This document shows positions 2,319 to 26,003 of a DNA stretch of 64,000 nucleotides, in pieces. How positions within the stretch are numbered: the stretch's first letter is position 1; each line of letters begins with the position of its first letter. The DNA comes from an uncultured Candidatus Saccharibacteria bacterium (GTDB taxonomy: Bacteria; Patescibacteriota; Minisyncoccia; Phycocordibacterales; PALSA-1337): positions 153,365-217,364 of the forward strand of contig CAYQFS010000001.1 in NCBI GenBank assembly GCA_964416985.1, given 5' to 3'. The notes under the pieces are model-generated. The model saw nothing but the letters and a program-made list of their open reading frames with translations. It was not told the origin of the DNA and ran no database searches. A program made the translations under genes and the position numbers.

Positions 2319-2380
2319 GGGTCAATTATACTGGAATATCGAATAACGCAAGGGTTTTTGAGGGGAAATCTATCACAAAA

Positions 2381-2398
2381 ACTTTATCAAAACTTTAT
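2381..2398 (+). promoter_or_regulatory. Direct repeat ACTTTAT-N4-ACTTTAT (putative OmpR-family box), copy A, in the divergent RR/DedA-PAP2 intergenic region
   Basis: Two ACTTTAT heptamers at 11-bp periodicity inside a ~55-nt element that recurs at 6721-6770 and 25925-25985. Confidence 0.45.
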
Positions 2399-2440
2399 TA
2401 TTTTTTAGGTATTTCTTGATCATCAATATGGTATACTATA

Positions 2441-3721
2441 GTGTTATATCATATGCCACATACTATTCTCAATTTTCTTGACAGTCTTCCATCTCTCATT
2501 GCTCAGGGAGGGTACTGGGTCATGAGTATTATTGTCATTCTTGAAGGAGCACCTATTGTAGGATCCCTTCTTCCGGGTCATATTGCAATCGTTGCTGCTG
2601 GTTTTCTTGCCAAGATGGGGATTCTCAATGTCTGGTTTGTCATCATTGTTGGATCGATCTCAGCTATCATTGGCGATATGATTGGTTTCTTTGCTGGGAG
2701 GAAATATGGCTATCCTCTACTTTCAAAATTTGCAAAGTACATTTTTATAAAAGAAATTCATATCGAGAAAGCCAAGAAGCTTATTGGTGCTCATACAGGA
2801 AAATCTCTTATTATTGGAAAATTCAGTCCAGTGACTCGTCCGCTCACTCCATTTCTCGTCGGTGCAAGTAATGCTAATTTCAAGACATTCTGTTTTTATA
2901 ACATTGTGAGTGCGATCATCTGGATAACAGCTTCTGTAATGGTCGGATATGTTTTTGGAGCGAGTTACTCTGCTGCATCACATGTTCTTGGAAAATGGAT
3001 TGGAGTTGCCTTCATCATAACTATTCTCACAATTTGGGGATACCATTTTGCAAACAAGCGGTTCCATATCTTTAAGCGGTACGAGCTTTTTGTTCTCATT
3101 TTGAATCTCCTTGCTCTTTGGGGTCTCGCAAAAACAGTCCAAGATGCATTTTCCCTGAGGCCATTCCTTATAAATTTTGATGAATGGGTGAGTGCTTTTA
3201 TGCTCAGCCACGTTTCCCCAATATTTACTTCATTCGCTCTTCTCATCACACATCTTGGTAGCACCGAGGTGACCATTTCTCTTGGGATAATTATCGGAAT
3301 TGCTTTTCTCATCAAAAAGAAATGGAGAAGGGGAGCAATTATGCTTATGTCAGTCCTCTCGACAAGTGTTGCAGTTGTTTTTATAAAGGGAATTGTTGAA
3401 CGTGCACGTCCTGAAAATGCAGTAACCTTGTACGGTCTCGTTGATCCAAGCTTTCCAAGCGGTCACGCCGCTCTAGCCGCTGCATTTTTTGTGGCTTTAG
3501 CGTATATCCTTGCTCCACACATCAGTTCGTGGGTCAAAAGAGAATTGGTAATCGTTTTCTGTGTTCTCGCTGCCCTTGGCGTGGGGCTCAGTCGAATTGT
3601 CCTTAATGTTCATTGGGCATCAGATGTCATTGCTGGTTGGTGTCTCGGGGTCTTTCTTGCGACACTCTCAGTGCTTCTTGTGAGGTATGTTGGGTTTTTA
3701 TTTCTTAGCGAGGATAAGTGA
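2441..3721 (+). CDS. DedA/SNARE-associated membrane domain fused to a PAP2 (type-2 phosphatidic acid phosphatase/undecaprenyl-PP phosphatase-like) domain
   Basis: The N-terminal ~200 aa are polytopic with DedA-like glycine-rich helices ('GYWVMSIIVILEGAPIVGSLLPG'). The C-terminus carries PAP2 motifs 'KGIVERARP', 'PSGHA' and 'SRIVLNVHWASDVIAGW'. Confidence 0.75.
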   Translation: MLYHMPHTILNFLDSLPSLIAQGGYWVMSIIVILEGAPIVGSLLPGHIAIVAAGFLAKMGILNVWFVIIVGSISAIIGDMIGFFAGRKYGYPLLSKFAKYIFIKEIHIEKAKKLIGAHTGKSLIIGKFSPVTRPLTPFLVGASNANFKTFCFYNIVSAIIWITASVMVGYVFGASYSAASHVLGKWIGVAFIITILTIWGYHFANKRFHIFKRYELFVLILNLLALWGLAKTVQDAFSLRPFLINFDEWVSAFMLSHVSPIFTSFALLITHLGSTEVTISLGIIIGIAFLIKKKWRRGAIMLMSVLSTSVAVVFIKGIVERARPENAVTLYGLVDPSFPSGHAALAAAFFVALAYILAPHISSWVKRELVIVFCVLAALGVGLSRIVLNVHWASDVIAGWCLGVFLATLSVLLVRYVGFLFLSEDK

Positions 3722-5230
3722 TCGGCCGGTCATTTCCTTTACTTCGGGTAAATTGAGAAGATCGAGAACTGTAGGGGCAAGATCTGCAAGCCCACCTTCT
3801 CGTAATGTATAGTCTTTACTAGTTAGTATACAAGGGACTGGGTTGGTCGTGTGCGCTGTGTGTTTCTCACCTGATATTGGATCGATATTTACTTCTGCAT
3901 TTCCGTGATCTGCTGTGATGATGGCAATGCCACCTTTCTTTTCGAGAGCTTCAATTACTCGCTGTAGTTGTGTGTCAACAGTCTCTACAGCAGTGATGAT
4001 TGCTGGAACATTTGCTGTGTGTCCAACCATGTCTGCATTAGCAAAATTAATGAAAATGAAATCAATTCCTTTTTCAATTTCCTCGAGAGCTTTGTCAGCG
4101 ATTTCTTTTGCTCTCATTTCAGGTGCTTCATCGTGGGTTTTTATGTCTTTGTGACTCGCCACCATAATATGACGTTCACCTGTTTGAGGTTTTTCTCTTC
4201 CTGAATTAAGAAAGTAAGTAGCATGGGGGAACTTTTCAGTCTCAGCGATTCTACTCTGTAAGAGTCCAGCTTTTGAGATTTCTCCTCCTAGGGTTTTGTC
4301 TACAGTAACAGGAGGGAAGGCGACGTGTGAATTATATTCGCGTGCGTATTCGGTTAGAGTTACAACGTAGAGATTTTCAGTTTTTTGTTTCTCAAGAAGT
4401 TTTTGAGTAATCATTCGGGCTCGGTCAGCTCTGAAATTAAAGAAAAATACCCCGTCATTTTTTTCGAACGCACATCCTTTTCCATCAAGATTTGCACAGA
4501 CGGTAGGTTCGAGTAATTCATCATTTTTTCCAAGCTTGTACTGTTCTTCGAGGTATGATGAAGGTCGTATTTCGCAGACATTTCCCTTACACTCGAACAT
4601 TGCTTTTTCGGTTCTTGCAAGACGATCCCAGTTGTTATCTCGATCCATGGCATAGTAGCGCCCAGAAATCGTTGCAATAAAGAATTCCGGACCGAGCTCT
4701 TCGATGAGTGCTTCAAGTTCCTTGATATATTTTGATGCACTCTGTGGAGGTGTATCGCGTCCATCGGTAAAGATATGAATTGCAACCTTCTTCATTCCTT
4801 GAGCCTTTGCCTCTCTGAGAAAAGCGAAAAGGTGATTTTGATGGCTGTGTACGCCTCCAATGCTAAGAAGACCTTGCACATGCAAGGTTGAGTTATTTTT
4901 TCGGACATGGTCGAAGAGAGCCACAAAAGCAGGGTTGGTATGGAGAGCTCCTTCGGCGATTGCCTTGTCGATACGTACTAGGTCGGTATCTACAGGTTTT
5001 CCTGCACCTATTGTGGTGTGCCCAACTTCACTGTTTCCCATTTGTCCTTCAGGAAGCCCAACCGCGTTTCCAGATGCCTTAAGGAGAGAATGGGGATATT
5101 TCTCCCAGATTGAATTGAAAAATGGAGTTCTAGCGGCAGCAATAGCGTTATCTTTTTTTTCAACTCGATACCCCCAGCCATCAAGGACAATTAGCATTAC
5201 TGGCTTCTTCACGATCTTTGGTTTATTCAT
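3698..5230 (-). CDS. gpmI: 2,3-bisphosphoglycerate-independent phosphoglycerate mutase
   Basis: 'VMLIVLDGWGY' Mn-binding N-terminus and full-length iPGM architecture (~510 aa). The likely start is the internal Met of MNKPKIV. Confidence 0.9.
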   Translation of the reverse strand: MNKPKIVKKPVMLIVLDGWGYRVEKKDNAIAAARTPFFNSIWEKYPHSLLKASGNAVGLPEGQMGNSEVGHTTIGAGKPVDTDLVRIDKAIAEGALHTNPAFVALFDHVRKNNSTLHVQGLLSIGGVHSHQNHLFAFLREAKAQGMKKVAIHIFTDGRDTPPQSASKYIKELEALIEELGPEFFIATISGRYYAMDRDNNWDRLARTEKAMFECKGNVCEIRPSSYLEEQYKLGKNDELLEPTVCANLDGKGCAFEKNDGVFFFNFRADRARMITQKLLEKQKTENLYVVTLTEYAREYNSHVAFPPVTVDKTLGGEISKAGLLQSRIAETEKFPHATYFLNSGREKPQTGERHIMVASHKDIKTHDEAPEMRAKEIADKALEEIEKGIDFIFINFANADMVGHTANVPAIITAVETVDTQLQRVIEALEKKGGIAIITADHGNAEVNIDPISGEKHTAHTTNPVPCILTSKDYTLREGGLADLAPTVLDLLNLPEVKEMTGRSLILAKK

Positions 5231-5361
5231 ATGTCGCCCCATTCTAACCTTTTTTTGCTTTAATTTCTAATATGATCTAATGCCATAACACAAATGTGGA
5301 AATACTGTTGATAACTTGTTCGTAACTGGTGTTTTTATGTGGATAATGTGTTGGTTTCGGA

Positions 5362-6669
<1,308 letters not shown>

Positions 6670-6735
6670 TTATATATGAATTTAAAAGGGAAGACAAACC
6701 ATACATTTTTCTCACGGAACTCTTGACAAAACGCG

Positions 6736-6753
6736 ACTTTATCAAAACTTTAT
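6736..6753 (+). promoter_or_regulatory. Direct repeat ACTTTAT-N4-ACTTTAT, copy B, preceded by TTGACA at 6723-6728
   Basis: Near-identical to copies at 2381 and 25941 ('cttgacaaaaYgcgactttatcaaaactttattta'). Confidence 0.45.
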
Positions 6754-6799
6754 TTAAATTTTATCAGGATTTTATCTCGATCTGATATGGTTGGGTCTG

Positions 6800-6868
6800 G
6801 CCGGAGGCTTGGCGCGGGATGAGACTTAGTAATCTATATCCTAAGGGTTCGAATCCCTTCTTCGGCTA
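6800..6868 (+). ncRNA. tRNA-like element (non-canonical, too short for a standard cloverleaf)
   Basis: Perfect T-arm 'AAGGG-TTCGAAT-CCCTT'. A 7-bp acceptor pairing GCCGGAG/CTTCGGC (one G-U). Only ~36 nt remain for the D and anticodon arms. Confidence 0.3.
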
Positions 6869-7051
6869 AGATTAAATAAAGGAAAGAGTTGACTTTTTAA
6901 ATAGTCTCGCTATACTTATTCCATACTAAGTCTGGTCTTACGAGAAATCGTAATAGCGCCAAAGCAGGATGTAGATGAGAAAGCTGCCCCCAAAGGGGTG
7001 GTTTTCTTTTGTTTTATTGCCATTCTTTCATTTTTACCCCATACTCATTAC

Positions 7052-7825
7052 ATGAACGACAAAAAAGACACCTCATGGGGCAAGGTAGCGGGCTGGTACG
7101 ATGAAATGCTCGAAAATAAGGACGGGACTTATCAAAAGGAGGTCATCCTGCCAAACCTCATGCGTCTCATTAACCCTCAAAAAGGGGAGAAAATTATTGA
7201 TATTGCCTGCGGGCAGGGGTTCTTTTCCCGGGCACTTCTCGAAGCGGGAGCGCAAGTTACTGGTACTGACATTGCAAAGGAACTCATTGGTCTCGCAAAG
7301 ATGCATTCTCCGCAATCAATTACTTTTGAAGTTGCACCTGCAGATGTTCTCAACTTTGCAAAAGACGCAACATACGACAAGGCACTTATTGTCCTTGCTC
7401 TCCAAAACATAGAAAACCTTCAGGGAGCTCTCCGCGAAGCATATCGGGTTTTGAAACCTGGTGGAACTTTTTATATTGTTTTAAATCATCCTGCATTTCG
7501 AATTCCAAAAAGCTCAAGTTGGAACTGGGACCACGAAACTCATCGACAGTACCGAAGAATCGATTCATACATGTCAGATGCACGAGAAAGAATTGAAATG
7601 AATCCAGGCGCTCAGAAAGTAGGTGAAAAGAGATTTACCATTTCGTTCCATCGACCTCTCCAACTCTATTTCAAAATGCTCAACAAGGCAGGATTTCTCA
7701 TGGGTCGTGTTGAAGAATGGGTTTCTCACAAGAAGAGCAATCCGGGACCGCGCCAGGCAGAGGAAGATCGAATCCGAAAGGAGATACCAATGTTCTTGTT
7801 TATCGAGGCGAAGAAAATGGTATAA
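7052..7825 (+). CDS. class I SAM-dependent methyltransferase
   Basis: Motif I 'IIDIACGQGFFSRALLEAGAQVTGTDI' and post-I acidic residue. The ORF opens at 6998; the likely start is MNDKKD. Confidence 0.75.
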   Translation: MNDKKDTSWGKVAGWYDEMLENKDGTYQKEVILPNLMRLINPQKGEKIIDIACGQGFFSRALLEAGAQVTGTDIAKELIGLAKMHSPQSITFEVAPADVLNFAKDATYDKALIVLALQNIENLQGALREAYRVLKPGGTFYIVLNHPAFRIPKSSSWNWDHETHRQYRRIDSYMSDARERIEMNPGAQKVGEKRFTISFHRPLQLYFKMLNKAGFLMGRVEEWVSHKKSNPGPRQAEEDRIRKEIPMFLFIEAKKMV

Positions 7826-7832
7826 TTTACTC

Positions 7833-8081
7833 ATGAACATAATCCTCTACACAAAATCTGGTTGCCCGTGGTGCAAGGGGGTCCTTGATCTATTTAAAGA
7901 GAAAAAAGTAAAGTTTGAAGAAAGAGAAGTTTTGAGTAACCCAGTATTTTTCGAAGAATTAAGAAAGAAATCAGGACAAGAAAAAACTCCGACACTTGAT
8001 ATTGATGGAGAAATTTTGGCTGACTCAGATCGCGAGGTAGTGGAGAAATATCTAAAAGAGAAGAAATATCTTGGATTCTAG
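7833..8081 (+). CDS. glutaredoxin-like protein (CPWC active site)
   Basis: 'MNIILYTKSGCPWCK...TPTLDIDGEIL' thioredoxin-fold Grx/NrdH-like, ~82 aa. Confidence 0.75.
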   Translation: MNIILYTKSGCPWCKGVLDLFKEKKVKFEEREVLSNPVFFEELRKKSGQEKTPTLDIDGEILADSDREVVEKYLKEKKYLGF

Positions 8082-8101
8082 TGCTAGTAAGTTAGCTTGA
8101 A

Positions 8102-9097
8102 TTATTTTAGCCACGCGGGTCTTAGTGGATGAGATGGCTTGTTCATCCTTTGGTGGACTGGGATTTGTGATGCCTGAAGAACTTTTGCCGGGTACATTAT
8201 CGCGTCTTCAATACCTTTTTCTATCGGAATGTTTGGAGTAATACCAATATCTCTTTTTATTTTTTCCATAGCATAGACGTGTGGCAATGTCGTCATTTCC
8301 CAGCCTTTCATTTCTTCCCAAACAGTACTTATATCTACGTTTTCTATTGTCAACCGAGAACCAATTTGGCGAGCAATTTCAGTATAATAATTCTTGGCTG
8401 TGATGATTTTGGGATTTACCAAATTATAAGCCTGACCAAAAGTGGTGGCATTTCCAATTATTTTACAGATTGCCGTGGCAATATCTTTTGGATGAACATA
8501 ATTAAAATTAATATTTCCACCATTGCATAGCTTGAGTGCCTCATTATTTTTTATTCTCTCGATAAGTTTTGGATCTCTGTTATGTTCAGGAATACAGCCA
8601 AGTAATGATTCGGCTCCAAGAATGTGATATGGCCGTAGTAGTGTCCAATTTACATTAGTGATTGAATGCCAAAACTTCTCTAGACTCACTTTTCCATCAA
8701 CGTAGCCACCAAATTTTCCCTTAGGAGCAAGTGGATTGTCTTCCGAAATCTTTTCCGTATTTTCTGCGGTTCGATCATATACAAGAGTAGTGCTTATGGT
8801 GATGATGTGCTGAGCACGACCTTTGAACAGGGTGTATGTATTTTCCGTACTTTTTTCGTCAAAGGCGATAATATCGATAACTGCATCCCATGCTTGATTG
8901 ATTTCAGAATTTAGCTTTTGGATTAAATCCTTGTATTCGTTTGTCGTACGATCAGCGACGTATTGTTTTACAATTGACGGAAAATTTGTTTTATCAAGAG
9001 CGATTGAGTATATGTTGTAAATATTATTTCGGATAAGTTCTGCAACCAAGGGTTTTCCTATTACTCCCGTTCCACCAATTATGAGTACATTCATCAT
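8102..9097 (-). CDS. NAD(P)-dependent epimerase/dehydratase family protein
   Basis: N-terminal Rossmann 'VLIIGGTGVIGKPLV'. SDR-like length. Confidence 0.55.
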   Translation of the reverse strand: MMNVLIIGGTGVIGKPLVAELIRNNIYNIYSIALDKTNFPSIVKQYVADRTTNEYKDLIQKLNSEINQAWDAVIDIIAFDEKSTENTYTLFKGRAQHIITISTTLVYDRTAENTEKISEDNPLAPKGKFGGYVDGKVSLEKFWHSITNVNWTLLRPYHILGAESLLGCIPEHNRDPKLIERIKNNEALKLCNGGNINFNYVHPKDIATAICKIIGNATTFGQAYNLVNPKIITAKNYYTEIARQIGSRLTIENVDISTVWEEMKGWEMTTLPHVYAMEKIKRDIGITPNIPIEKGIEDAIMYPAKVLQASQIPVHQRMNKPSHPLRPAWLK

Positions 9098-9104
9098 ATT
9101 AATT

Positions 9105-10283
9105 TTAGTTCGTATCCCTTAATCTCCAAATAGGAATCATCGCCAAGAGGCACATTATTCCAAGTGCAATAAAGAGCACGGTTATGTCTTTGGTAAATAG
9201 AAAACCTATGGTAGTAATGATCGGAGCAATAAAGTAGGCAAGAGGACGAGTGACCCGGAAGAAGCCGAGCATGTTCGAGTCATTTGGGGAGACGGTTTTA
9301 AAGAAATACGCTTCAATCATAACTTCGGCAGCAGCAGCACCGACTCGAGTCATAAAGAGAGCAAGAGCCCAGATCCAAATACTGTGTGAGGTAATTCCTG
9401 CAAGAGCAATTGTTGCAAGGCCGAGGAGTGCGAATCCAATCATCATAATTTCCTTCTCCCCATACTTTTTATCGGCAAGTTTGCCGAGAGGCCACTGAGC
9501 AATAGGGAAAGGAAGGAGCATGATGGTGAGGATGATTCCGATTTGAGTCCAATTAAATCCAATCGTCGTGTGTAAATAAATTGGGCTGTACACAACCATC
9601 CATGAATAAAAGACCTGAAGAATAATATTTATAGCAAAAAGCTTTGAATGGTCACGGCTCTTCAAGACGTGTTTGAACGTTCCAAAAAGGGAAGGATGAG
9701 TGTAGTGTGGATCTTTGAAGCGAGGGAAATTTTTGTAGACGAGATAAAGAAGGGGGAAGAGCATGTAGAGAGCGGCCACGTAGACACCTCGGTAGTCGTT
9801 TGAGTTGCCGATGATCATTGTCCCGATGAGAGGTGTGATGACCCAGGCAGTGTTCAAGGTCGTAAGATACATTCCGCGGATTCTTCCAACATTTTCCTTT
9901 TCAGAATATGTCTCAAGAAACACATCGAGGCAGAAACCGATAAGGCTCACAACCGCCATTTGTGCAATGAAAAGAGCGGCAATAGCGATTGGGTTTGTGA
10001 CAACGGTCAGTCCGTAGAAAAGGCCAATCTGGATTAAGATGAGCCAGACAGCCGTGAGGTAGTTTCCTACTTTCCGGAGAAAAGTAGGGATAAAAAGAAA
10101 GCCAAAAATGGTCAGAGCCGAGCTTATCATGTAGATGAGTCCTACATTCTCTTCTGACGTAAAAAGGGAAAGGAAGCTCGAGCTCGAGTAGGTCGGCAAG
10201 ACGGCGTGAATGGTGGCGATGAAGCCGATAACTGTAATTGTGTAGATGACCCGGCTCTTTCCGAGAGATGAATGATGAAGCAT
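9105..10283 (-). CDS. MFS transporter
   Basis: ~12 predicted TM helices and a 'GKLADKKYGEK' MFS loop-like motif. Confidence 0.7.
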   Translation of the reverse strand: MLHHSSLGKSRVIYTITVIGFIATIHAVLPTYSSSSFLSLFTSEENVGLIYMISSALTIFGFLFIPTFLRKVGNYLTAVWLILIQIGLFYGLTVVTNPIAIAALFIAQMAVVSLIGFCLDVFLETYSEKENVGRIRGMYLTTLNTAWVITPLIGTMIIGNSNDYRGVYVAALYMLFPLLYLVYKNFPRFKDPHYTHPSLFGTFKHVLKSRDHSKLFAINIILQVFYSWMVVYSPIYLHTTIGFNWTQIGIILTIMLLPFPIAQWPLGKLADKKYGEKEIMMIGFALLGLATIALAGITSHSIWIWALALFMTRVGAAAAEVMIEAYFFKTVSPNDSNMLGFFRVTRPLAYFIAPIITTIGFLFTKDITVLFIALGIMCLLAMIPIWRLRDTN

Positions 10284-10310
10284 ATACGCCCTATTATAGC
10301 GTCAAAATGC

Positions 10311-12254: not shown

Positions 12255-12287
12255 AAATGTGTAATTGTGTTAGTAATGTTAATTATT

Positions 12288-14249: not shown

Positions 14250-14360
14250 GTGGGGGTACTATAGCATAGTATAAAAGAAATGCAAACGTTATAAAAAACC
14301 GCACGGAGTCAATTGCTTGACGCCGCGCGGGATTGAAACTAAGGAACGAATTGAGTCACA

Positions 14361-15210: not shown

Positions 15211-15519
15211 ATGAAAAAAAACATCTCACAAAAAATCAAACCATTACAGGATCGTGTCTTGATTAAAGAAGACACCTCAAGCAAGGAAAAGAAAACTTCG
15301 TCGGGGATCATCATTCCTGTAAGCGCTCAAGAGGACAAGGGAAGTAAAAGCGGGGAAATTGTGGCGGTTGGGACGGGACGATATGAAGATGGAAAAATTA
15401 TTCCCATTTCTGTAAAAGTCGGAGAAACAGTGCTTTTTCAGTGGGGAGACAAAGTGCGGATCGGCGACGAGGAATACTATATTGTCAAAGAATCAGAAAT
15501 TTTAGCAGTTATTAAATAA
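15211..15519 (+). CDS. groES: co-chaperonin GroES
   Basis: 'IKPLQDRVLIKE...GIIIP' signature. Confidence 0.95.
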   Translation: MKKNISQKIKPLQDRVLIKEDTSSKEKKTSSGIIIPVSAQEDKGSKSGEIVAVGTGRYEDGKIIPISVKVGETVLFQWGDKVRIGDEEYYIVKESEILAVIK

Positions 15520-15524
15520 AAAAT

Positions 15525-17180: not shown

Positions 17181-17231
17181 TGGAATCGTGGTATACTAGC
17201 CTTCATATATAAGTGGGTTTATTAAAAAAAC

Positions 17232-17912
17232 ATGAAAAAATCAATAATTATCGTTGTAGTTATCATTATTATAGGACTCGTTATTTGGGGTGTTTCTCGA
17301 AATAAGAGCACAACCTCAGGGGTTTCTACAGAGACTCCGGTTGCTTCTTCAACTACTGTTTCAGCTCCAGTGAGTGAGACAACGAAGGTTTCTGACAAGC
17401 TCTCAGAATACAAGAACGAAGAACTTGGATTTAGCGTAAAGTATCCTTCAGCTTGGGAGGCTACTCCATCTGAAACTGGTGTTACGTTCGTAGTTCCAGT
17501 TGGAAAGGCAGAGACAAATACTATCGGAAAACTTGAATCTAAGATAATGGTCATCTCTGGAAAGTGCTCATTCCCTCCAGTTACAACTATCAAGGATCGA
17601 AGTACATTGAAGTCGGGAGATCTTTCTTTCAGTATGATTTCAATGTCAAACTCAGTACAGGGTCGATCATACTTTGACAGAATGTACTCATTGCAGCGAG
17701 ACAGTATCTGCTACATATTTAGTTTCTCATCGATCACGCTTAGCCCTGCTTCAAAAGGCTTCAAGGGATCAGAAGTTACTCAGATGACAAACAACAACAA
17801 AGCAATTGTCGATGCAGCTGATGCTTCATTTGTAAGTATGATTAAGTCATTTGGTTATGTCGTTGGAGCAGCAGGCAAAAACGAAGCCGATGTTGTTCCT
17901 GCAAAGAAATAA
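17232..17912 (+). CDS. hypothetical membrane-anchored/secreted protein
   Basis: N-terminal TM helix followed by a Ser/Thr-rich linker. Confidence 0.5.
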   Translation: MKKSIIIVVVIIIIGLVIWGVSRNKSTTSGVSTETPVASSTTVSAPVSETTKVSDKLSEYKNEELGFSVKYPSAWEATPSETGVTFVVPVGKAETNTIGKLESKIMVISGKCSFPPVTTIKDRSTLKSGDLSFSMISMSNSVQGRSYFDRMYSLQRDSICYIFSFSSITLSPASKGFKGSEVTQMTNNNKAIVDAADASFVSMIKSFGYVVGAAGKNEADVVPAKK

Positions 17913-17930
17913 TATTTCTTCTCCTACGCT

Positions 17931-18485
17931 ATGAAAAAAACACTCGGCATCATTATTGCAATCGTCGTTCTTGTCCTTCTCTACGGTTTTGGAACCTACA
18001 ACCGTCTCGTGACTTTGAACGTTGATGCAGATACCAAGTGGAAGCAAGTCGAAGTCGATTACCAGAGACGCTTCGATCTCATTCCTGGTCTCGTAGAGTC
18101 AGTGAAGGGAATCATGAAGCAAGAGACAGCAGTCTTCACCGCTCTTGCTGACGCACGTACCCACTACGCAGGTGCTACGAGTGCAAATGAAAAAGCTATC
18201 GCAGCAGGACAAGTTGACTCCGCTCTCGGACGACTTCTTGTTATTGCCGAAAATTATCCTGAGCTCAAGTCATCTGCAAACATGGCAACTTTCATGTCTC
18301 AGTACGAAGGAACAGAAAATCGCATTGGTGTTGCTCGAATGAAATATAATGATGCTGTTAAAGAGTACAATCTCAAAGTAATGAGAATTCCAAGCTCTAT
18401 TATTGCAGCTCTCACTGGTTTCAAAGAACGGGCATATTTCGAAGCGGCTGCCGGTTCAGAAAAAGCTCCTGAAGTAAAATTCTAA
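17931..18485 (+). CDS. lemA: LemA family protein
   Basis: 'YNRLVTLNVDADTKWKQVEVDYQRRFDLIPGLVESVKG' LemA core. Confidence 0.85.
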   Translation: MKKTLGIIIAIVVLVLLYGFGTYNRLVTLNVDADTKWKQVEVDYQRRFDLIPGLVESVKGIMKQETAVFTALADARTHYAGATSANEKAIAAGQVDSALGRLLVIAENYPELKSSANMATFMSQYEGTENRIGVARMKYNDAVKEYNLKVMRIPSSIIAALTGFKERAYFEAAAGSEKAPEVKF

Positions 18486-18489
18486 TCTC

Positions 18490-19350
18490 ATGAAGCGAGT
18501 AGGCATTATTTCTACTCTTTGCCTTCTTTTTTTCACGCCATTTCTTGTTAGTGCGTACCAAAGCCCTGGAAAACCCCAGGGCTTTGTCAGTGATTTTGCT
18601 GGTATTCTTTCTCCGGGAGCTAAAAGTTCTCTTGAAAGTTCTCTTTCTTCTTTTCAAAAAGAAACTTCTCTCGAGATCGCGGTCGTCACTATTCCTTCTC
18701 TCGGAGATGAGACTATCGAGACGTATGCCGTAAAACTTTTTGAGGAATGGGGGATTGGGGACAAAGAAAAAGATACCGGTGCACTGCTTCTCGTCGCTCC
18801 AAATGAGCGCAAAGTCCGTATCGAAGTCGGCTATGGTCTCGAAGGCTCTCTCACTGATGCTCAGTCAAATGGAATTATTCAGACTATTGTTCTCCCGGCT
18901 TTTCGGGCGAATGACTATGAAAAGGGAATTACCGAAGGGGCGAGGGCGATGATGGAGGTGGTCAGAGGAGAGGGAAATTATGTGCCCGTAGATCGAACCT
19001 CAGATACTCAAAAAGGGATTTTCTATTTCATTCAGCACTTTGGGTTCATCATTCTTTTTATTGTCATCAGTATTTTTGCAAGTACAAAGTCGTGGTGGCT
19101 TGGAGGGATTCTTGGCGCTGGTACAGGAATAGTTATTGGCTTTTTCTCGACCATTTTTATCGGTGTTATCTCGACGGTTGTTCTCACTCTTGTCGGCTTA
19201 CTCGTTGATTATCTCGCGTCTAAAGGAGGCGGGAGGGGAGGAAGGGGAGGATTCTGGGGAGGTTTTGGAGGTGGTAGTTTTGGGGGAGGTGGATTTGGAG
19301 GATTTAGTGGAGGTTCTTCTGGCGGCGGGGGATCCTCCGGTAGCTGGTAG
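18490..19350 (+). CDS. TPM-domain protein (YgcG-like) with Gly-rich C-terminal tail
   Basis: TPM phosphatase-fold motifs ('GFVSDFAGILS', 'LLLVAPNERKVRIEVGYGLEG'). LemA-TPM pairing is a conserved gene-neighbourhood. Confidence 0.8.
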   Translation: MKRVGIISTLCLLFFTPFLVSAYQSPGKPQGFVSDFAGILSPGAKSSLESSLSSFQKETSLEIAVVTIPSLGDETIETYAVKLFEEWGIGDKEKDTGALLLVAPNERKVRIEVGYGLEGSLTDAQSNGIIQTIVLPAFRANDYEKGITEGARAMMEVVRGEGNYVPVDRTSDTQKGIFYFIQHFGFIILFIVISIFASTKSWWLGGILGAGTGIVIGFFSTIFIGVISTVVLTLVGLLVDYLASKGGGRGGRGGFWGGFGGGSFGGGGFGGFSGGSSGGGGSSGSW

Positions 19351-19401
19351 TTTACATTGTATGTACATTCTCTATACAATGTCTATACAAAGGAAGGTTC
19401 G

Positions 19402-19488
19402 CATAGTGGTCTAGTGCGCAACGTTGGAAACGTTGTGTGGGAGAAATCCCACCGAGAGTTCGAATCTCTCACCTTCCGCAGTTGAATT
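19402..19488 (+). tRNA. tRNA-Ser (anticodon GGA), class II with long variable arm
   Basis: Acceptor GGAAGGT/ACCTTCC, D-arm GCAT/GTGC, anticodon stem CAACG/CGTTG with loop TTGGAAA, T-arm GAGAG-TTCGAAT-CTCTC. Confidence 0.9.
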
Positions 19489-19566
19489 TTGGTATCGGGT
19501 GACTTTAATGCACAATTGTCATAGCTTAAGCTTCGCAAAGCGTCTGATTCATTGTATTATTGTCAT

Positions 19567-20856
19567 ATGAAAAATAATCAAAAAGGTTTCATTGCTCCCT
19601 TGCTGACTGTGATAATTGGGTTGATAGTAATAGGAGGCGGAGCTTATATGTATTTGAATAAAGATCATGGCTCATTGGGCATATCTGACACAACTTCAAT
19701 CACTGATCCGAAAGATGTCAAAGATTTTGATACTTGCATGAGTTATGCAAAAAATATACCGACAAATTTTGATATTGTGTTCGCTCACGGTTCTAATATT
19801 CAGGATGTAACGAATATTGAAGCAGATTTCCAGAAAGCATACCCACAGGCCAAATTGAAAGTTTCCACCGAGCAAGACGCGATGGATGAAGCCATTGCTT
19901 ATAATGGGGGAAGTATAAAGACTGCAAGCGGATTGGCAGACTATAAGAAACAAATAACACCACAACTCACTTCCAAAATCTCTGTCAGCGTTCCTCTTCA
20001 ATATCTCGGTACAAAGAAGAGCTTTGATGATTTTATGACAATGATATTGAGTAAGTATCCTCGGGCAAAATTCCAACAGTATGCAGGCTCTTCTCCGGAG
20101 ACGTTCCTATCTGATTCCTCAATAAGTGTGGGTGAGGCTCAGTATGTTTACCAGCAACAATGCACCTACAAATACAAGACATTAGATGCATCAGGCCGAG
20201 CAGCACTGGACGTCAAGACTGCAGATCAATCTATTCAACTCGGGGTACGAGTCACAATGTTAAACGCCTCAAGTTATTATGAAGACCATGCTTCTTATGG
20301 CTCCGGTGCTCTATCACAGAATAATGGTGTATGTTCCGATACTGGCGTGTATGGACTAAGTAAATCACTAGACTCCCTTACAAAGAATGCGGGTGTTTCA
20401 TATTGCTATGCTTCTGCGACTGCATTTGCAGTGTCTGCCCCGCTAAAATCTGATCCATCAATAGGATACTGTGCTGACAGTACTGGTTTCTTTGGTAAGA
20501 CTCCTCCAACAGCAGCTAATAAAGGTTACTGTGTTGCACCTAGGAAAGTTAGTCAAGATATCAGCTCTTGCCAGAATGGCGGATCAACTGTTAGGGCGAG
20601 ATGGATATGTGTAGGTAACATCGTAGATCCAACTCCTCCATTCCATATACAAAATATTGTTATGCCGTTCGCTACTCCTATTTCAGAGAAGATTAATTTC
20701 TGTAAGACATTTAATGGTACTGAAGCTGACTATTGTTTTGCTTCCATAATCCAGTCAGCAGGAACTGATCGTTTTAGTGAAGAAGCAAAATCAATATGTA
20801 ATATGATCTCTGATAAAAATACATGGTTCAAAAATGATTGTAAGAATAAAGATTAA
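19567..20856 (+). CDS. Cys-rich secreted/surface protein with pilin-like N-terminal hydrophobic segment
   Basis: 'MKNNQKGFIAPLLTVIIGLIVIGG' resembles a class III (prepilin-type) leader but lacks Glu+5. It has >12 Cys in the extracytoplasmic part. Confidence 0.5.
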   Translation: MKNNQKGFIAPLLTVIIGLIVIGGGAYMYLNKDHGSLGISDTTSITDPKDVKDFDTCMSYAKNIPTNFDIVFAHGSNIQDVTNIEADFQKAYPQAKLKVSTEQDAMDEAIAYNGGSIKTASGLADYKKQITPQLTSKISVSVPLQYLGTKKSFDDFMTMILSKYPRAKFQQYAGSSPETFLSDSSISVGEAQYVYQQQCTYKYKTLDASGRAALDVKTADQSIQLGVRVTMLNASSYYEDHASYGSGALSQNNGVCSDTGVYGLSKSLDSLTKNAGVSYCYASATAFAVSAPLKSDPSIGYCADSTGFFGKTPPTAANKGYCVAPRKVSQDISSCQNGGSTVRARWICVGNIVDPTPPFHIQNIVMPFATPISEKINFCKTFNGTEADYCFASIIQSAGTDRFSEEAKSICNMISDKNTWFKNDCKNKD

Positions 20857-20950
20857 GAATAATTTAGGAGCACTAATCCCCAAGACCTAGTGATTTTGCA
20901 ATAAAAAACTCCGCCTCTATCTTTCACAAAGGAAAAACAGATGCGGAGCT

Positions 20951-21304
20951 TCAGGGTTCCTTGAAGATCTTTCTTGTTACGAAGTAACTAATGACGGTCA
21001 AGATGATAGTGATCGGTATTTGTGCCAAGAGATAATGGACTTTCCAACGTTCGACGAGCAGATAAAGGAGCAGAAAGTTGCTGGATACCGTAAAGACCGC
21101 GAGCCATGTATATTTGCCAGCCTCTCTTCCTGTCTTTTTTCTATCGATGCTTCTAAATGCCCAGAATTTCTGCATGTAGAAATTTACAATGTTATTTACT
21201 AAGAATGCGGCAACTGATGATAGTACATACCACATACCTAGGAATTCCGTAAACGTCCACATGATAATGTAGTAACAAATGACTCCTACACCACCTGCAG
21301 CCAA
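20951..21304 (-). CDS. GtrA-family membrane protein
   Basis: 117 aa, 4 TM, 'FLVNNIVNFYMQKFWAFR' GtrA-like motif. Confidence 0.5.
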   Translation of the reverse strand: MAAGGVGVICYYIIMWTFTEFLGMWYVLSSVAAFLVNNIVNFYMQKFWAFRSIDRKKTGREAGKYTWLAVFTVSSNFLLLYLLVERWKVHYLLAQIPITIILTVISYFVTRKIFKEP

Positions 21305-21432
21305 AAACCGAAAAATCTCAATTAACCGTGTTTTTATATTATTTTGTGCGATGTTCAGATACGCCTCCTTTCTTGTTCAGGCCACATAGTATCCACAATT
21401 AGGTATTCAGTCAAACGTGGTATAATTTTGAC

Positions 21433-21763
21433 GGCTACAGAAAGGGGCCTTCCTATGACTGAGGTCGATCAGGTCGATACACGGATTAGGGTAAGTCCTT
21501 GGGATTACTTCATGTTGATAGTCGAAGGATCTCAAAGCGAGTTAAATATGTACTTCACCTCGCTTGCATTGCAAGATCCACACCCATCACCATACGCGTG
21601 TTTTCTCCACTTTAGATACCACGGAGGTAAGGCGGAGCTCGATACGCGCTTCAGAGTTGATCCAGGAGTTCCTTCTCACAGAAGAAGTCTGACGGTTCAA
21701 CTTCCTCTCGCTGCCTGAGGCAGCTTTAACAACAGGTGTCCCTCATCGGACACCTGCGTTTTT
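21433..21763 (+). ncRNA. GC-rich structured RNA with its own promoter and terminator; type unresolved
   Basis: Extended -10 'TGGTATAAT' at 21418-21426. ~48% GC in a 40% GC genome. Hairpin GCTGCC-TGA-GGCAGC at 21706-21725. Rho-independent terminator at 21734-21763. The overlapping 124-aa ORF is not protein-like. Confidence 0.5.
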
Positions 21764-21810
21764 ATTCAATTTTTTGAAAAACGATCCATTTTGCTGTATC
21801 ATGTACTTCT

Positions 21811-23530
21811 CATGAAGCTTTCTCCTTCCCCTAGTATTTTAAGTATCCTCAAACCATACAGGGGGAGCGTCTTTCTCCTTGTTGTTCTAGCTGCGATTGC
21901 CAATGCCCTTGCTCTCGTCATTCCCAAACTTATTTCAAGAGGAATCGATTCATATGCTGCAGGTACTCTTGTCATGAGTACAATCGCGATTGAGTTTAGT
22001 ATCGTTTCTTTCAGTATTTTCGCTCTCACGTACTTTCAGGGCATTATGCAGGTCTATGTCTCTGAAAAGGTTGCACGCGATACGAGAGACAGACTTGCTG
22101 GAAAAATATCGGAATTGAGTTTTGCCGAACTTGAGAAAGAAAAATCGACAAAACTTCTCACATACCTTACGTCGGATATCGATGCTCTCAAGTCATTTGT
22201 TTCTTTTGGGATTGTGACGGTCATTTCGTCGATTGTAGTTATCATCGGGGCGATTATTCTTCTCATGATGATCAATTGGAAGCTCGCACTTGCAGTGCTC
22301 GCTATTTTGCCTTTTATCGGAATTCTTTTTGCCGTTGTTTTTTCTCGGCTCGGACCTCTTTTTAAAAAGACTCAGGAGCTCATAGATAATCTAAACCTCA
22401 TTATCAGCGAAAGTATCATTGGCTCGGCTCTCGTTCGCGTTTTTAATTCTGGAAAGCAGGAAGCTTCAAAATTTAATGACGCTAATACCGAATCAAAAAA
22501 GAACGGCCTGGCTATCCTCAAATATTTTTCTCTCATCATTCCTGCAGTTGGAATTGTTGGGAACCTAGCGTCTCTCATTATCTTGCTTCTCGGAGGACAT
22601 TTTGTAATTGGGGGGACGATGACCATTGGAGATTTTACGGCGTTTCAAAGCTACGTTTTCATTCTCATTTTTCCAATAATTATGCTCGGCTTTGTTTCGA
22701 GCATCATTTCCCAAGCCCAGGCCTCCTATGGCCGAATCTCCGGACTTTTGAATAAACCACATGAAGAAGAAACAGGTACTATCGAAAAAGAACTGAAGGG
22801 AAATCTTGAGGCAAAAAATATTACTCTCGAATATGGAGAAAAGTGTGTTCTTAAAAATGTCTCTTTTAATGTCCGGGCAGGTACGAGAACGGCCATCATA
22901 GGTCCAACCGCAGCGGGGAAGACGCAGCTTTTGAATGTCCTTATTGGGCTTGTAAAGCCGGTATCAGGAAAAGTTCTTTATGATGGAATTCCAGTCGAAG
23001 AATATACTCGACAGGCAGTATATTCCCAGGTTGCAATCGTTTTTCAGGATAGCGTGATGTTCAATCTTACTCTCAGGGAAAATATTGCTTTCAGCACAAC
23101 AGTCAATGATGTCGAACTTGCCAAGGCGATCGATACTGCCGAACTTGGGGATTTTCTTCACACTTTGCCAAAAGGACTCGATACAATTGCCTCGGAAAGG
23201 GGAACCAGTCTTTCGGGGGGACAGAAGCAGCGCATCATGCTCGCGCGAGCGCTCGCATTGAATCCAAGAATCCTCCTTCTTGACGACTTTACTGCACGAG
23301 TCGATGCTCAGACCGAGAAGAAGATTTTGAAAAATATTGAGAAAAACTATCCTGAGATCACCATTATTTCTGTCACCCAGAAGGTGACTTCTGTGAAGCA
23401 TTATGAAAAAATAATTCTTCTTATGGAAGGGGAGATTCTTGCGGAGGGAACTCACGATGAGCTCGAGGATTCATCTCCAGAATACGCACAGATTCTTGAG
23501 TCGCAAAAAAGTACTCAGGCGTATGAATAG
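21811..23530 (+). CDS. ABC transporter permease/ATP-binding protein (type I exporter, TMD-NBD)
   Basis: Six TM helices, Walker A 'GPTAAGKTQL', signature 'LSGGQKQR', Walker B 'LLLDD'. Confidence 0.9.
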
Positions 23531-23543
23531 AAACTTTTAAAAT

Positions 23544-25319
23544 ATGAATTATTCACTTTCAAAAATTAAAGACGAGCACGAGGAAAAAGTTTCTTGGATT
23601 TCTTCTGTGCGAAAAATGTTGCCAGTTCTTTCGGGAGAGAGGACGAAGCTTGTGATCGTGCTTACTACGCTCATTTTGAACTCGGTTCTGACTCTCATTG
23701 GACCGCTTGTTATCGGGCATGTCATCAACACCTTCATCATTGCGGGGAATTTTAGGGGAGTTGTCATGTACTCACTGCTTCTCGTTGTTATTTACGCTGG
23801 AGCTTTCACTGCAAACTATATTCAAATAAAAACAATGGGAGCAGTAGCACAAAGGACGCTTTTTAGGCTTCGAAACATGATTTTTGGAAAGCTCATGGAA
23901 CTTCCTCTAGCATTTTTCAATCAAAATAAATCTGGAGATCTCATTTCTCGCATCAATAACGACACGAGTAAATTGAATCAATTTTTCTCCGAAGGCCTCA
24001 TGCGTTTTGCCGGTACATTTTTCATCATTTCCGGAGCGGCTGTTTTTGTCATTGTCATTAACTGGAAGCTTGCCCTTGCATCTCTCGCACCGGCAGCGGT
24101 AGCTTTTGTTATTACCCGAGTCATTTCTCCATGGGTCAAAAGGACGACAGGAAAAAGTCTTCGTGCAAATGGGGCACTCAGCAGCGAAGCGCAGGAGAGT
24201 ATGACAAACTTCAAGGTCATCCTCGCTTTCAATCGCCGTGATTATTTCCGAAAAAAGTTTGCAGAGGTGAATCAAAATAACTTTAAAGCAGCTTTCAGGG
24301 CTGGAATTGCAAATGAGATTTTTACACCCATTTTTGAATGGTCAGCAAATGTCGCCCTCCTCATTGTTCTTGCATACGGAATTCATTTAATCGATGTGCA
24401 GGCGTTTACCGTCGGATTTCTCGTGAGCTTCGTCATTTACATCACTCGTTTCTATGATCCTCTTCGTGAAATGGCTCGTCTATGGTCAACATTCCAGACT
24501 GCTCTTGCTGCATGGGATCGCATCGGAGAAATTCTTCGTCTCACATCTGACCTTACAATTGTCAAAGACACCGAAATTACCAAAAACAAAAATTCTGTAA
24601 TCGAATTTAAAAATGTCTCCTTTGCATATCCTGAAGGAGCTATAGTCCTCAAGCACGCAAGCTTTTCATTTGAAAAGGGAAAAACCTATGCTCTCGTTGG
24701 TCCAACTGGGGGAGGAAAAACGACCACAGCTTCTCTCATTGCTCGTCTCTATGATCCAACTGCGGGAACCATTTTTCTTGATGGTAAGGACATTCGTACC
24801 TATGATCCTATAGTGCGTACCCAGAAGATCGGCTTCATTCTTCAGGAAGCATTTCTCTTTAGCGGGACGGTGCGTGAAAATATTCTCTATGGAAATAGCC
24901 AGTATATTGAGAAGGGAATTGAAAAAGGAAAAGAGGCTCTCGAAAAAGATCTTCGTGATTCAGGCCTTTCAGAACTTTTGAAAAGATTTGATAAAGGTCT
25001 CGACACACCAATAGGCGCTCACAGCGAACTTTCTCTTGGTGAACGCCAGCTCATTGCGTTTATTCGCGCGGTGCTTCGAAAGCCGGAAATTCTTATTCTC
25101 GATGAAGCAACTGCAAATATAGATACTGTCACAGAAAAACTTCTCGAGGATGTTCTCAAAAAATTGCCAAAGGAAACGACCCGGGTTATTATCGCTCATC
25201 GTCTCAACACTATTGAAAATGCTGATGGAATATTCTTTGTAAATGGTGGAGATATTGTAGAAGCGGGTTCAATGGATCACGCTGTTGAAATGCTCCTTCA
25301 TCACAAGAGAAAAAGTTAG
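23544..25319 (+). CDS. ABC transporter permease/ATP-binding protein (exporter, partner of previous)
   Basis: Walker A 'GPTGGGKTT', signature 'LSLGERQ', Walker B 'ILILDEAT'. Likely a heterodimer with 21811-23530. Confidence 0.9.
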   Translation: MNYSLSKIKDEHEEKVSWISSVRKMLPVLSGERTKLVIVLTTLILNSVLTLIGPLVIGHVINTFIIAGNFRGVVMYSLLLVVIYAGAFTANYIQIKTMGAVAQRTLFRLRNMIFGKLMELPLAFFNQNKSGDLISRINNDTSKLNQFFSEGLMRFAGTFFIISGAAVFVIVINWKLALASLAPAAVAFVITRVISPWVKRTTGKSLRANGALSSEAQESMTNFKVILAFNRRDYFRKKFAEVNQNNFKAAFRAGIANEIFTPIFEWSANVALLIVLAYGIHLIDVQAFTVGFLVSFVIYITRFYDPLREMARLWSTFQTALAAWDRIGEILRLTSDLTIVKDTEITKNKNSVIEFKNVSFAYPEGAIVLKHASFSFEKGKTYALVGPTGGGKTTTASLIARLYDPTAGTIFLDGKDIRTYDPIVRTQKIGFILQEAFLFSGTVRENILYGNSQYIEKGIEKGKEALEKDLRDSGLSELLKRFDKGLDTPIGAHSELSLGERQLIAFIRAVLRKPEILILDEATANIDTVTEKLLEDVLKKLPKETTRVIIAHRLNTIENADGIFFVNGGDIVEAGSMDHAVEMLLHHKRKS

Positions 25320-25864
25320 TTTTTCTGGAGTTTTTTTACCACCTCTTCACATTTAAGGAAAAGGTCTTCGAGTGTCCCATTATTTTCTATGACAATGTCA
25401 GCCATCTCAATGACTTTTCCGACATTCTGGCCGTTCCTGTCCTTGCTTTCATTTTCCTCTTCTTCTATTTTCTTGAAATCTTCGAACGTTACTTCGTCAC
25501 CGATTCTCCCTCTCTTTTTTGAAAATTCATAGCGCCTCTCCATGGGTGCAACGACAGCAATCACTGTACCTCCGAGTTTTTTGAATGTTTCGACTTCGTC
25601 AATTGCTCTAAGACCGCTCACGATGAGATTTTCCTTTGTTTTTTCAAAAGCGACTCTCACGAGGTAGTCACCACCGTGTTTTGCTCGGAGTTCGTTTGCG
25701 TGTTTGTGAACATTCGGCCGGTCGAGAGTACCAAGGTTATTTTTTGTAATGTAATCTCTGATGAGGTCACTGCTTGAAATGTGGTGAAGGGAATATTTCT
25801 TGGCGACGTACTCTGCCGCTGTGTCCTTGCCTCCAACTGGATGTCCAACAAATGCTAGTTTCAT
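25316..25864 (-). CDS. P-loop nucleotide kinase-like protein
   Basis: N-terminal 'VGHPVGGKDT' P-loop. ~180 aa NMP-kinase-like size. Confidence 0.4.
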   Translation of the reverse strand: MKLAFVGHPVGGKDTAAEYVAKKYSLHHISSSDLIRDYITKNNLGTLDRPNVHKHANELRAKHGGDYLVRVAFEKTKENLIVSGLRAIDEVETFKKLGGTVIAVVAPMERRYEFSKKRGRIGDEVTFEDFKKIEEEENESKDRNGQNVGKVIEMADIVIENNGTLEDLFLKCEEVVKKLQKN

Positions 25865-25940
25865 GTTCGTATTCTAGCATGGTTTTTAAAAAAGGTTTTA
25901 AATTGGCCAAAATCCATAGGGAAAACCTTGACAAAATGCG

Positions 25941-25958
25941 ACTTTATCAAAACTTTAT
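25941..25958 (+). promoter_or_regulatory. Direct repeat ACTTTAT-N4-ACTTTAT, copy C, preceded by TTGACA at 25928-25933
   Basis: Shares ~55 nt with copies A and B, including the downstream 'tttttaggtatttcttgatca' seen in copy A. Confidence 0.45.
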
Positions 25959-26003
25959 TTATTTTTAGGTATTTCTTGATCACCCCTTTGCTAGGGTAAG
26001 GGA

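Follow-up and report, generated by a model that had tools for sequence, protein, structure and literature searches.

We found four copies of a promoter array in a 64,000-nt stretch of an uncultured Candidatus Saccharibacteria genome (contig CAYQFS010000001.1; the whole stretch is called the window here), and every copy consists of four head-to-tail 11-bp units with the core TTTATC, followed by a -10-like hexamer 6-7 bp past the last unit. The array is a genuine, non-random cis-regulatory element. It is probably a type of promoter that has no -35 hexamer and carries four phased 11-bp binding units for the adjoining OmpR/PhoB-type response regulator (RR), a reading which is supported at the level of sequence by the geometry of the arrays, by a sole winged-helix RR, and by conservation at the RR locus and at the orthologues of the gene behind copy C. 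The original prediction for this DNA had named three copies of a ~55-nt element (copies A, B and C) and proposed that the local two-component system uses them to control a dispersed envelope regulon. All three sites were confirmed, but a fourth copy on the minus strand (copy D) had been missed.

Composition and occurrence of the array

The exact 18-mer ACTTTATCAAAACTTTAT occurs three times in the window, at 2381-2398, 6736-6753 and 25941-25958, always on the plus strand, and with up to two mismatches it gave six matches against a mean of 0.79 in shuffled sequence (0 of 100 shuffles reached six), so the three predicted copies are real. The predicted sharing of flanks also held, as copies B and C have 40 nt in common at 93% identity, CTTGACAAAAyGCG included, and copies A and C have 53 nt in common at 87% identity, TTTTTAGGTATTTCTTGATCA included. 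When TTTATC-N5-TTTATC was searched with up to one mismatch, only copies A, B (in three overlapping registers), C and D were returned from 64 kb, and the Markov control gave a mean of 0.77 matches. The expected number of four-unit arrays per window is 0.15, and it falls to 0.1 if the -10 hexamer is added. A partial copy at 56064-56100 (TTTCTTGATCATC...CATACT) was taken as chance; it spans the start of an open reading frame (ORF), and TTTCTTGATCA is not enriched.

Array A (2381-2424, plus strand) consists of the units ACTTTATCAAA / ACTTTATTATT / TTTTAGGTATT / TCTTGATCATC, array B (6736-6779, plus strand) of ACTTTATCAAA / ACTTTATTTAA / ATTTTATCAGG / ATTTTATCTCG, and array C (25941-25984, plus strand) of ACTTTATCAAA / ACTTTATTTAT / TTTTAGGTATT / TCTTGATCACC. 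Array D (1600-1643, minus strand) begins 7 nt past the RR stop codon, between that stop and the histidine kinase (HK) gene, and has the cores TTTAA / TTTAG / TTTATC / TTTATC; its promoter-proximal 21 nt (1600-1620, TTTTATCAGaATTTTATCTCG) fit the proximal half of copy B at 20 of 20 specified pattern positions. The phasing is not perfect everywhere, since A and C have one weak unit each and units 1 and 2 of D (TTTAA, TTTAG) are imperfect. In the closest relative, L125 (RR identity 94%), copy A has a perfect TCTTTATCATC as its unit 4, which means that the degenerate TCTTGATCATC of the window is a true unit. Across all loci the unit core is T-T-T/C-A-T-(C), with four units here and 4-7 elsewhere. 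Thus the two heptamers at 11-bp spacing that were first described are indeed 11-bp phased direct repeats, but each copy has four units and then a -10 hexamer.

Promoter anatomy

Copy A is followed, 7 bp past unit 4, by the extended -10 TGgTATACT (2429-2437, plus strand), which forms a promoter without a -35 for the DedA-PAP2 fusion gene described below, and the same arrangement was found in L125 and L118. Copy B has the extended -10 TGaTATGGT (6783-6791, plus strand) 6 bp past unit 4, with a predicted transcription start at ~6798. The -10 of copy C is TAGGGT (25992-25997, plus strand), 7 bp past unit 4; it lies only 6 nt before the ATG, so the mRNA would be leaderless or nearly so. The -10 of copy D is TATACT (1588-1593, minus strand), 6 bp past unit 4. 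For copies A, C and D the predicted starts are near 2444 (plus strand), 26003 (plus strand) and 1581 (minus strand). In all four copies the last TTTATC hexamer ends 9-10 bp before the TAnnnT -10, so that the proximal units cover the -35 position, and the scan for sigma-70 hexamer pairs found no -35/-10 pair at any of the four array promoters. The TTGACA adjoining copies B and C was ruled out as a -35 by the same scan, as no -10 lies 16-18 nt from it. Phased half-sites, a replaced -35 and a cognate RR with linked sites are the marks of an OmpR/PhoB-type class II operator, and they were found together here; the OmpR/PhoB-style geometry first suggested for the element is therefore supported by phased repeats at the -35 position with 9-10 bp to the -10.

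Upstream of unit 1, each of copies A, B and C has a further module. It is GGGGAAATCTATCACAAAA in copy A (2360-2380, plus strand), CTTGACAAAACGCG in copy B (6722-6735, or 6712-6735 in its wider extent, plus strand), where it has no -10 partner as a -35, and CTTGACAAAATGCG in copy C (25927-25940, wider 25918-25940, plus strand), which resembles the module of copy B. The B and C modules read ..GGAAC/GGGAAAAC-CTTGACAAAAyGCG, and the module was also found in L125, L126 and L252.

The response regulator and histidine kinase genes

The RR gene (1650-2318, minus strand; Response_reg and Trans_reg_C by Pfam) encodes the proposed binder, and this winged-helix OmpR-family protein is the sole RR within the window. 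The best-scoring curated families in NCBIfam were the CusR/CopR/CzcR heavy-metal subfamily (TIGR01387, 200.5 bits, cutoff 279.2) and RppA (188.7 bits, cutoff 250), both below cutoff, and the PhoB equivalog TIGR02154 (170.1 bits, cutoff 296.2) and NF053854 (151.7 bits, cutoff 270) were not reached either; the RR falls in no curated equivalog. The heavy-metal subfamily was ruled out by its score below cutoff and by the lack of metal-efflux genes near the arrays or in the conserved neighbourhood. Homologues with 60-75% identity were found on many Patescibacteria contigs with a nearly invariant recognition helix (SNTVEAHILNLRKK), and the nearest are annotated as Patescibacteria, Paceibacterota or Taylorbacteria, which points to a source within the Patescibacteria.

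The original prediction placed copy A between an RR-HK operon and the DedA-PAP2 gene, and autoregulation of that operon from copy A did not hold. Copy A is oriented to the DedA-PAP2 gene and not to the RR. The RR has no array of its own; its TATAAT -10 (2325-2330, minus strand) lies 6 nt from the ATG, so that the promoter is leaderless, with a predicted start at the A of this ATG (2318), and this arrangement is kept in L118, L120, L122 and L128. The HK gene (557-1435, minus strand; HisKA and HATPase_c by Pfam), which likely starts at ATG 1435 (alternative GTG 1501), carries array D, and we infer that the HK, not the RR, is the autoregulated partner. The predicted HK transcript has a hairpin, ATCAATG-GGTCGA-CATTGAT (1561-1580, minus strand), at its 5' end, and L118, L122 and L129 keep the GGUCG loop on stems of different sequence (with a G.U pair in L129). 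This covariation was taken from individual folds, as the MAFFT alignment left the stems unaligned. On the unrelated contig L145, a related GGTCGA motif stands 3' of an array, but with a different stem by RNAfold.

Small ORFs were also seen in the HK leader. The HK start ATG 1435 overlaps the stop of a small upstream ORF (ATGA; 1432-1500, minus strand), whose C-terminal part (..PPWVRAP..HFA..) has a similar counterpart in L125 and a weakly similar one in L118. A 71-aa ORF is listed at 1432-1647, and its N-terminal part, which coincides with array D, is not conserved in frame.

Linkage of the array to the RR locus

An array with its -10 stands directly 3' of the RR stop codon in 7 of the 10 RR lineages examined, which are, with their RR identity, the window, L125 (94%), L126 (75%), L118 (73%), L122 (69%), L129 (64%) and L042 (49%). 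The array of L126 is cut by the contig end. In L118 the cores are TTTATC/TTTATT/TTTATT/TTTATC followed by TATACT, in L122 there are four phased units with a TACAAT -10 at 6 bp, and in L129 the cores are TTCAT/TTCAT/TTGAT/TTCAT, followed by TAGAAT. In L042 the array comes after a terminator and has six phased units, the last of them degenerate, then 7 bp and TATAAT. No RR-linked array was found in L120, L123 and L128, and in these lineages the HK gene overlaps or abuts the RR gene. The contig L145 has an array of the same kind 5' of an HK gene whose product is 36% identical to the HK of the window.

Gene order around the locus is also kept. The DedA-PAP2 gene divergent to RR-HK, followed by a PD-(D/E)XK nuclease gene, was found in L118, L120, L122, L123 and L128; in L129 the DedA-PAP2/RR-HK core is present, and the nuclease gene next to it is missing. 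An extracytoplasmic function (ECF)-type sigma factor gene lies a few kb off in several relatives (L118, L120, L123, L042).

The gene behind copy C

Copy C stands before a gene for a 145-aa protein (26004-26441, plus strand), whose ATG follows the -10 by 6 nt without a leader. Arrays were found 5' of this gene in all four of its distinct lineages. L252 (88% identity, same synteny) has a full B-type array, then gtttgt, TAGGGT, tcatta and ATG. L253 (64%, unrelated neighbours) has six phased units, then gtctgt, TAGGCT, tgatga and ATG, and L254 (57%, unrelated neighbours) has TCTTTATCATT / TCTTAAGAACT / TCTTTATAACT / TCTTAAGAACT, then ttttgt, TATGGT, gtgtga and ATG. The layout of array, 6 bp, -10, 6 nt and ATG is thus kept in L252, L253 and L254 while sequence and context change.

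The 145-aa protein has 57 homologues and no Pfam match of its own, but two of the homologues match MuF_C (28.2 and 26.9 bits; cutoff 27.6) and, weakly, PBECR nuclease families. Its AlphaFold model had a pLDDT of 93.4 (38 sequences used), and a Foldseek search of this model against the PDB gave no significant match. We predict with moderate confidence that the protein has a BECR (Barnase-EndoU-ColicinE5/D-RelE; colicin-D/RelE-like) fold and is possibly RNase-like. The original prediction had also put the following MBL, ABC exporter and DUF192 genes behind copy C. The 145-aa gene stands as its probable target, but a terminator-like hairpin (26481-26498) and a separate promoter (26563-26591) come between that gene and the MBL gene, so the MBL, ABC and DUF192 genes are not clearly in the regulon.

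The tRNA-like RNA behind copy B and its partner

Copy B stands before a 68-nt tRNA-Thr-like RNA without a D arm (6800-6867, plus strand), which begins ~2 nt past the predicted start. It has the acceptor GCCGGAG/CUUCGGC, an anticodon-like arm, an 8-nt loop with UUAGUA, a canonical T arm and a discriminator U. ARAGORN made no call for this RNA, and Rfam, RF00005 included, gave no tRNA match at the gathering threshold (the best was tRNA-Sec, 19.6 bits against 47). A canonical tRNA was ruled out by the missing D arm, the 8-nt loop and these two negative results. A homologue in L185 (1057-1124) also stands behind a four-unit array; 4 of 21 pairs are compensatory, and 97.6% of cells are paired. When a covariance model was made from the two sequences, the next best matches were genuine tRNA-Thr(GGU) genes. 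The loop UUAGUAA is one base off from the UUGGUAA of tRNA-Thr, and the acceptor start GCCG and the discriminator U agree with it.

A sigma-70-type promoter, TTGACT-16-TATACT (6889-6916, plus strand; sigma-70 scan), follows the tRNA-like RNA, and then comes a partner small RNA (sRNA) of ~87 nt (~6924-7012, plus strand) with an intrinsic terminator near 6988-7012. The 5' end of the partner, TACTAAGTCT, is perfectly complementary over 10 nt to 6822-6831 of the tRNA-like RNA, and a second complementary stretch lies at 6967-6977 (an 11-mer with one G.U). On the side of the tRNA-like RNA the region concerned is 6822-6843. The same layout of tRNA-like RNA, promoter and partner was found in L185 and L214, with promoter and partner at 1149-1276 and 884-996, respectively, and with partner RNAs of ~75-90 nt. 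In these the partner is complementary to the anticodon-like arm over 15 nt, at 93% in L185 and perfectly in L214, and L185 has a second stretch at 1223-1239 (17 nt, 88%), while the paired sequences themselves differ among the window, L185 and L214. In L185 the end of the partner was set by a scored terminator; for the window and L214, hairpins recognized in the sequence itself were used. Compared with shuffles, RNAduplex energies were significant for L185 (3/500) and L214 (0/500) and not for the pair of the window (158/500), where the pairing consists of the perfect 10-mer and the 11-mer with one G.U. No family of Rfam 15 matches either RNA.

The original prediction had further placed a methyltransferase and a glutaredoxin gene behind copy B. 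The tRNA-like RNA stands as a probable target, but these genes have their own promoter: the methyltransferase gene, which probably starts at ATG 7053, has the separate promoter TTGACT-16-TATACT and the sRNA terminator in front of it.

L214 (746-996) has a different tRNA-like RNA under its array promoter, one whose acceptor is 10 bp long (GCGGGCCTGG/CCAGGCCCGC), and this RNA and its partner form a long-range folded structure (z = -6.1). The array of L145, which drives an HK gene, differs from that of L214 by two bases.

The DedA-PAP2 fusion behind copy A

The gene behind copy A encodes a DedA(VTT)-PAP2 fusion (2453-3721, plus strand; ORF from 2441, likely start ATG 2453; VTT_dom and PAP2 by Pfam). 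The protein has weak matches to UptA and SepP in NCBIfam and is a putative undecaprenyl-phosphate flippase and undecaprenyl-diphosphate phosphatase. [quoted passage not shown] The expectation that the box would be conserved before DedA-PAP2 orthologues was borne out in L125, where the array is complete, but L118 and L122 have about one good unit with TATAAT, and the DedA-RR spacers of L120, L123 and L128 (38-56 bp) have no array and only an extended -10. The array is complete only in L125, so array control of this lipid-carrier recycling fusion would be a feature of a sub-lineage. The 770-bp DedA-RR spacer of L129 was left out of this unit-by-unit comparison. This spacer (L129, 9232-10000, on a Taylorbacteria contig) is non-coding, with much G+C-balanced, hairpin-like sequence, and the corresponding spacers of the relatives have 38-111 bp.

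Proposed mechanism and targets

In the proposed mechanism, the RR would be made constitutively from its own leaderless promoter. Once phosphorylated, it would bind as head-to-tail dimers, one per two units, with the perfect distal pair ACTTTATCAAAACTTTAT nucleating the binding, and the promoter-proximal dimer would take the -35 position and recruit RNA polymerase, as in PhoB and CiaR. The array promoters would then drive the HK (copy D, a positive feedback), the DedA-PAP2 fusion (copy A), the tRNA-Thr-like RNA (copy B) and the 145-aa RNase-fold protein (copy C). These four are the probable direct targets in the window, because separate promoters or terminators stand before the methyltransferase and MBL genes. 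The envelope regulon first proposed therefore keeps DedA-PAP2 as a probable member, but the conserved targets appear to be the HK and the putative RNase-fold protein, plus the tRNA-like RNA, rather than a set of envelope genes.

A more specific proposal is that the RR controls an RNA-centred stress module (tRNA-Thr mimic, partner RNA and 145-aa effector) and not an envelope set, and we regard it as unlikely at present. The inducible D-arm-less mimic would keep G1-C72, C2-G71, the G35-U36-like loop bases and the discriminator U of tRNA-Thr, a constitutive RNA of ~75-90 nt from the adjacent promoter would pair by its 5' end with the anticodon arm of the mimic, and the co-regulated protein with the colicin-D/RelE-like fold would act as a nuclease or effector on the RNA pair or on tRNAs. 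If true, this would be an undescribed tRNA-mimic/anti-mimic switch, conserved in several Patescibacteria lineages. The 3'ETS-leuZ sponge and RNA I/RNA II of ColE1 are tRNA-derived or tRNA-like regulatory RNAs that pair with a partner, and they are alike in having a tRNA-shaped RNA with a loop region complementary to a second RNA. Here, in contrast, the two RNAs are adjacent on the same strand with separate promoters, one array-dependent and one sigma-70-type, and it is the 5' end of the partner that pairs.

Wider distribution of the array

The 18-mer was scanned against one genome per species without selection for the -10 register, and the matches listed were mostly chance; among them, 16 of 117 loci belong to Patescibacteria, and the source genome is not represented. 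The Patescibacteria or Saccharibacteria loci with at least four units among these listed matches were L007, L010, L052, L077, L098, L019 and L042, and 7 of these 7 multi-unit loci have TAnnnT 6-7 bp past the last unit, with TGn in 6 of 7. One Saccharibacteria metagenome-assembled genome on the list has four copies. The genes behind the listed arrays are Tc-toxin/RHS-like, lipase, pilin-like, rpsF-ssb, ComM-like ATPase, and phospholipase-C-like followed by DedA, and OmpR-type RRs were present at 12 of the 117 listed loci, which is not clearly above background. A scan of metagenomes for four TTTAT units was dominated by perfect 11-bp minisatellites and left ~10 informative loci (L145, L181, L182, L184, L185, L214, L216, L218, L219). 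The array element is conserved across Patescibacteria.

The metagenome contigs L142 and L194 carry head-to-tail TTTATCCAC(A/C/T)n with an 11-bp period and 4 to >20 units. These resemble phased DnaA boxes and are unrelated to the array element.

Alternative explanations

Several observations weigh against the RR-operator reading. No array lies within 18-20 kb of the RR gene in L120, L123 and L128, even though the RRs there have the same recognition helix, and the array before DedA-PAP2 is not retained beyond close relatives. The conserved module 5' of unit 1 (GGGAA...CTTGACAAAA) falls outside the array model. From the sequence we infer that the RR binds the arrays and that it activates and does not repress, and likewise where transcription starts and what the signal is. 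Among the matches listed, the Saccharibacteria arrays precede very diverse genes (Tc-toxin-like, lipase, pilin, rpsF-ssb), and no RR orthologue was seen on the array-bearing Saccharibacteria contigs; these two observations leave room for a more general promoter factor.

Such a general element would be a promoter component of Patescibacteria, consisting of phased A/T tracts that act as curved DNA, of an UP-like element, or of sites for a global factor other than this RR, that boosts extended -10 promoters lacking a -35 independently of the two-component system. We consider it unlikely. The housekeeping or highly expressed genes (rpsF-ssb, pilin) and toxin-like genes behind the listed Saccharibacteria arrays fit it, as do the missing RR orthologues there and the three RR lineages without a local array. 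But the window has only 4 arrays for ~60 genes, with 3 of them within 5.2 kb of the RR gene, and the position directly past the RR stop in seven lineages is hard to explain otherwise than by a link to the RR. Sequence-specific recognition is indicated by the C at hexamer position 6 and by the precise spacing to the -10, and repeats arranged head to tail every 11 bp are the hallmark of winged-helix RR dimers.

It is rather improbable that A, B and C arose merely by recent duplication of a single promoter cassette, through recombination or gene conversion within this genome, and have no common regulator. A part of this explanation seems to be correct. Copy C is a mosaic of a B-type distal half and an A-type proximal half, and the orthologous promoter in L252 is wholly B-type, which indicates that promoter halves were exchanged within this genome. 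Because the copies have 40-53 nt in common, non-core spacer bases included, the likeness of A, B and C appears to come partly from recent promoter exchange and not from selection on binding alone, and this is a further point against a simple RR-operator reading. However, L118, L122, L129, L253 and L254 keep the periodicity, the core and the distance to the -10 while the remaining sequence has changed, which argues for selection on function and not for shared history, and exchange among the promoters of one regulon fits the RR-operator reading too.

A mobile or structural repeat (MITE- or REP-like) or a DnaA-box cluster (TTATCCACA-like) is highly improbable and largely refuted. TTTATCAAA does agree with the DnaA box at 7 of 9 positions, and metagenomes (L142, L194) contain head-to-tail TTTATCCAC arrays. 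But no copy is flanked by terminal inverted repeats or by target duplications, the bases past TTATC vary (AAAA, TATT, AGG, TCG) and are not the conserved CACA, and there are only four copies in the 64-kb window, all intergenic, each before a -10 and in a fixed register to it and to the gene start.

Comparison with known systems

In the pho box of PhoB, direct repeats of ~7 bp recur every 11 bp with 4 bp of A/T-rich spacer between them, and the boxes can be tandem. At PhoB promoters the last heptamer lies ~10 bp before the -10 and replaces the -35, and the activator is an OmpR/PhoB winged-helix RR. The arrays share the direct-repeat periodicity, the -35 replacement and the type of RR with these promoters. 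But the half-site here is ACTTTAT/TTTATC and that of PhoB is CTGTCAT, no pst, phoU or phosphatase genes stand behind the arrays, and the RR does not reach the cutoffs for PhoB, so a Pho regulon was ruled out.

The control of uptA (yngC) by Sigma-M in Bacillus subtilis offers a likeness on the side of the target, as a DedA-family undecaprenyl-phosphate flippase is placed there under an envelope-stress regulator. In that case control is exerted by an ECF sigma factor, whereas here it would be exerted by a two-component system, and the array before the fusion is kept only in close relatives.

In streptococci, CiaR recognizes TTTAAG-N5-TTTAAG with 10 bp to the -10 (PMC3091779). The CiaRH regulon is compact, with monocistronic units and small non-coding RNAs, and has cell-wall-related phenotypes, namely beta-lactam resistance and lysis (PMC3091779). 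The hexamer repeat with N5, the distance to the -10 and a compact regulon that includes small RNAs are alike. The differences are a core of TTTATC and not TTTAAG, at least four units where CiaR has two, a tRNA-like RNA with a dedicated complementary partner, and the Patescibacteria host, so the likeness to CiaRH is one of mechanism only and does not make the window system a member. This kind of system is thus known. In the literature searched, however, box, regulon and lineage were all new, and no description of this box, this regulon or a tRNA-like RNA in the candidate phyla radiation (CPR) was found.

Other features of the window

The window has a G+C content of 42.6%. The earlier gene calls for RR, HK, DedA-PAP2, methyltransferase, glutaredoxin, MBL, ABC exporter and DUF192 were confirmed by Pfam, and so were the iPGM and enolase genes. 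At 53407-53490 (plus strand) ARAGORN called an 84-nt tRNA-Asp with the anticodon at position 30, which was absent from the Rfam tRNA matches at the gathering threshold and may be unusual or interrupted. The class A RNase P RNA at 34441-34738 (plus strand; 115.9 bits) has 298 nt for a model of 367 positions, and this short form fits the reduced RNase P of Patescibacteria. Three copies of the 20-nt TGGGGTTTTGTATGATGTTG, 90% identical and 653 and 757 bp apart, lie at 55598-57027 (plus strand) and may mark tandem paralogous genes.

Significance

Patescibacteria (CPR) have tiny genomes with very few regulators, and almost nothing is known about their gene control. The array gives an operator model, (A/T)YTTTATC units with an 11-bp period that end 9-10 bp from an extended -10, together with a candidate regulator shared by many Patescibacteria at 60-75% identity and a short list of conserved targets. 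With these, one of the few two-component systems of the CPR would become a regulon that is predictable genome by genome, even in uncultured organisms.

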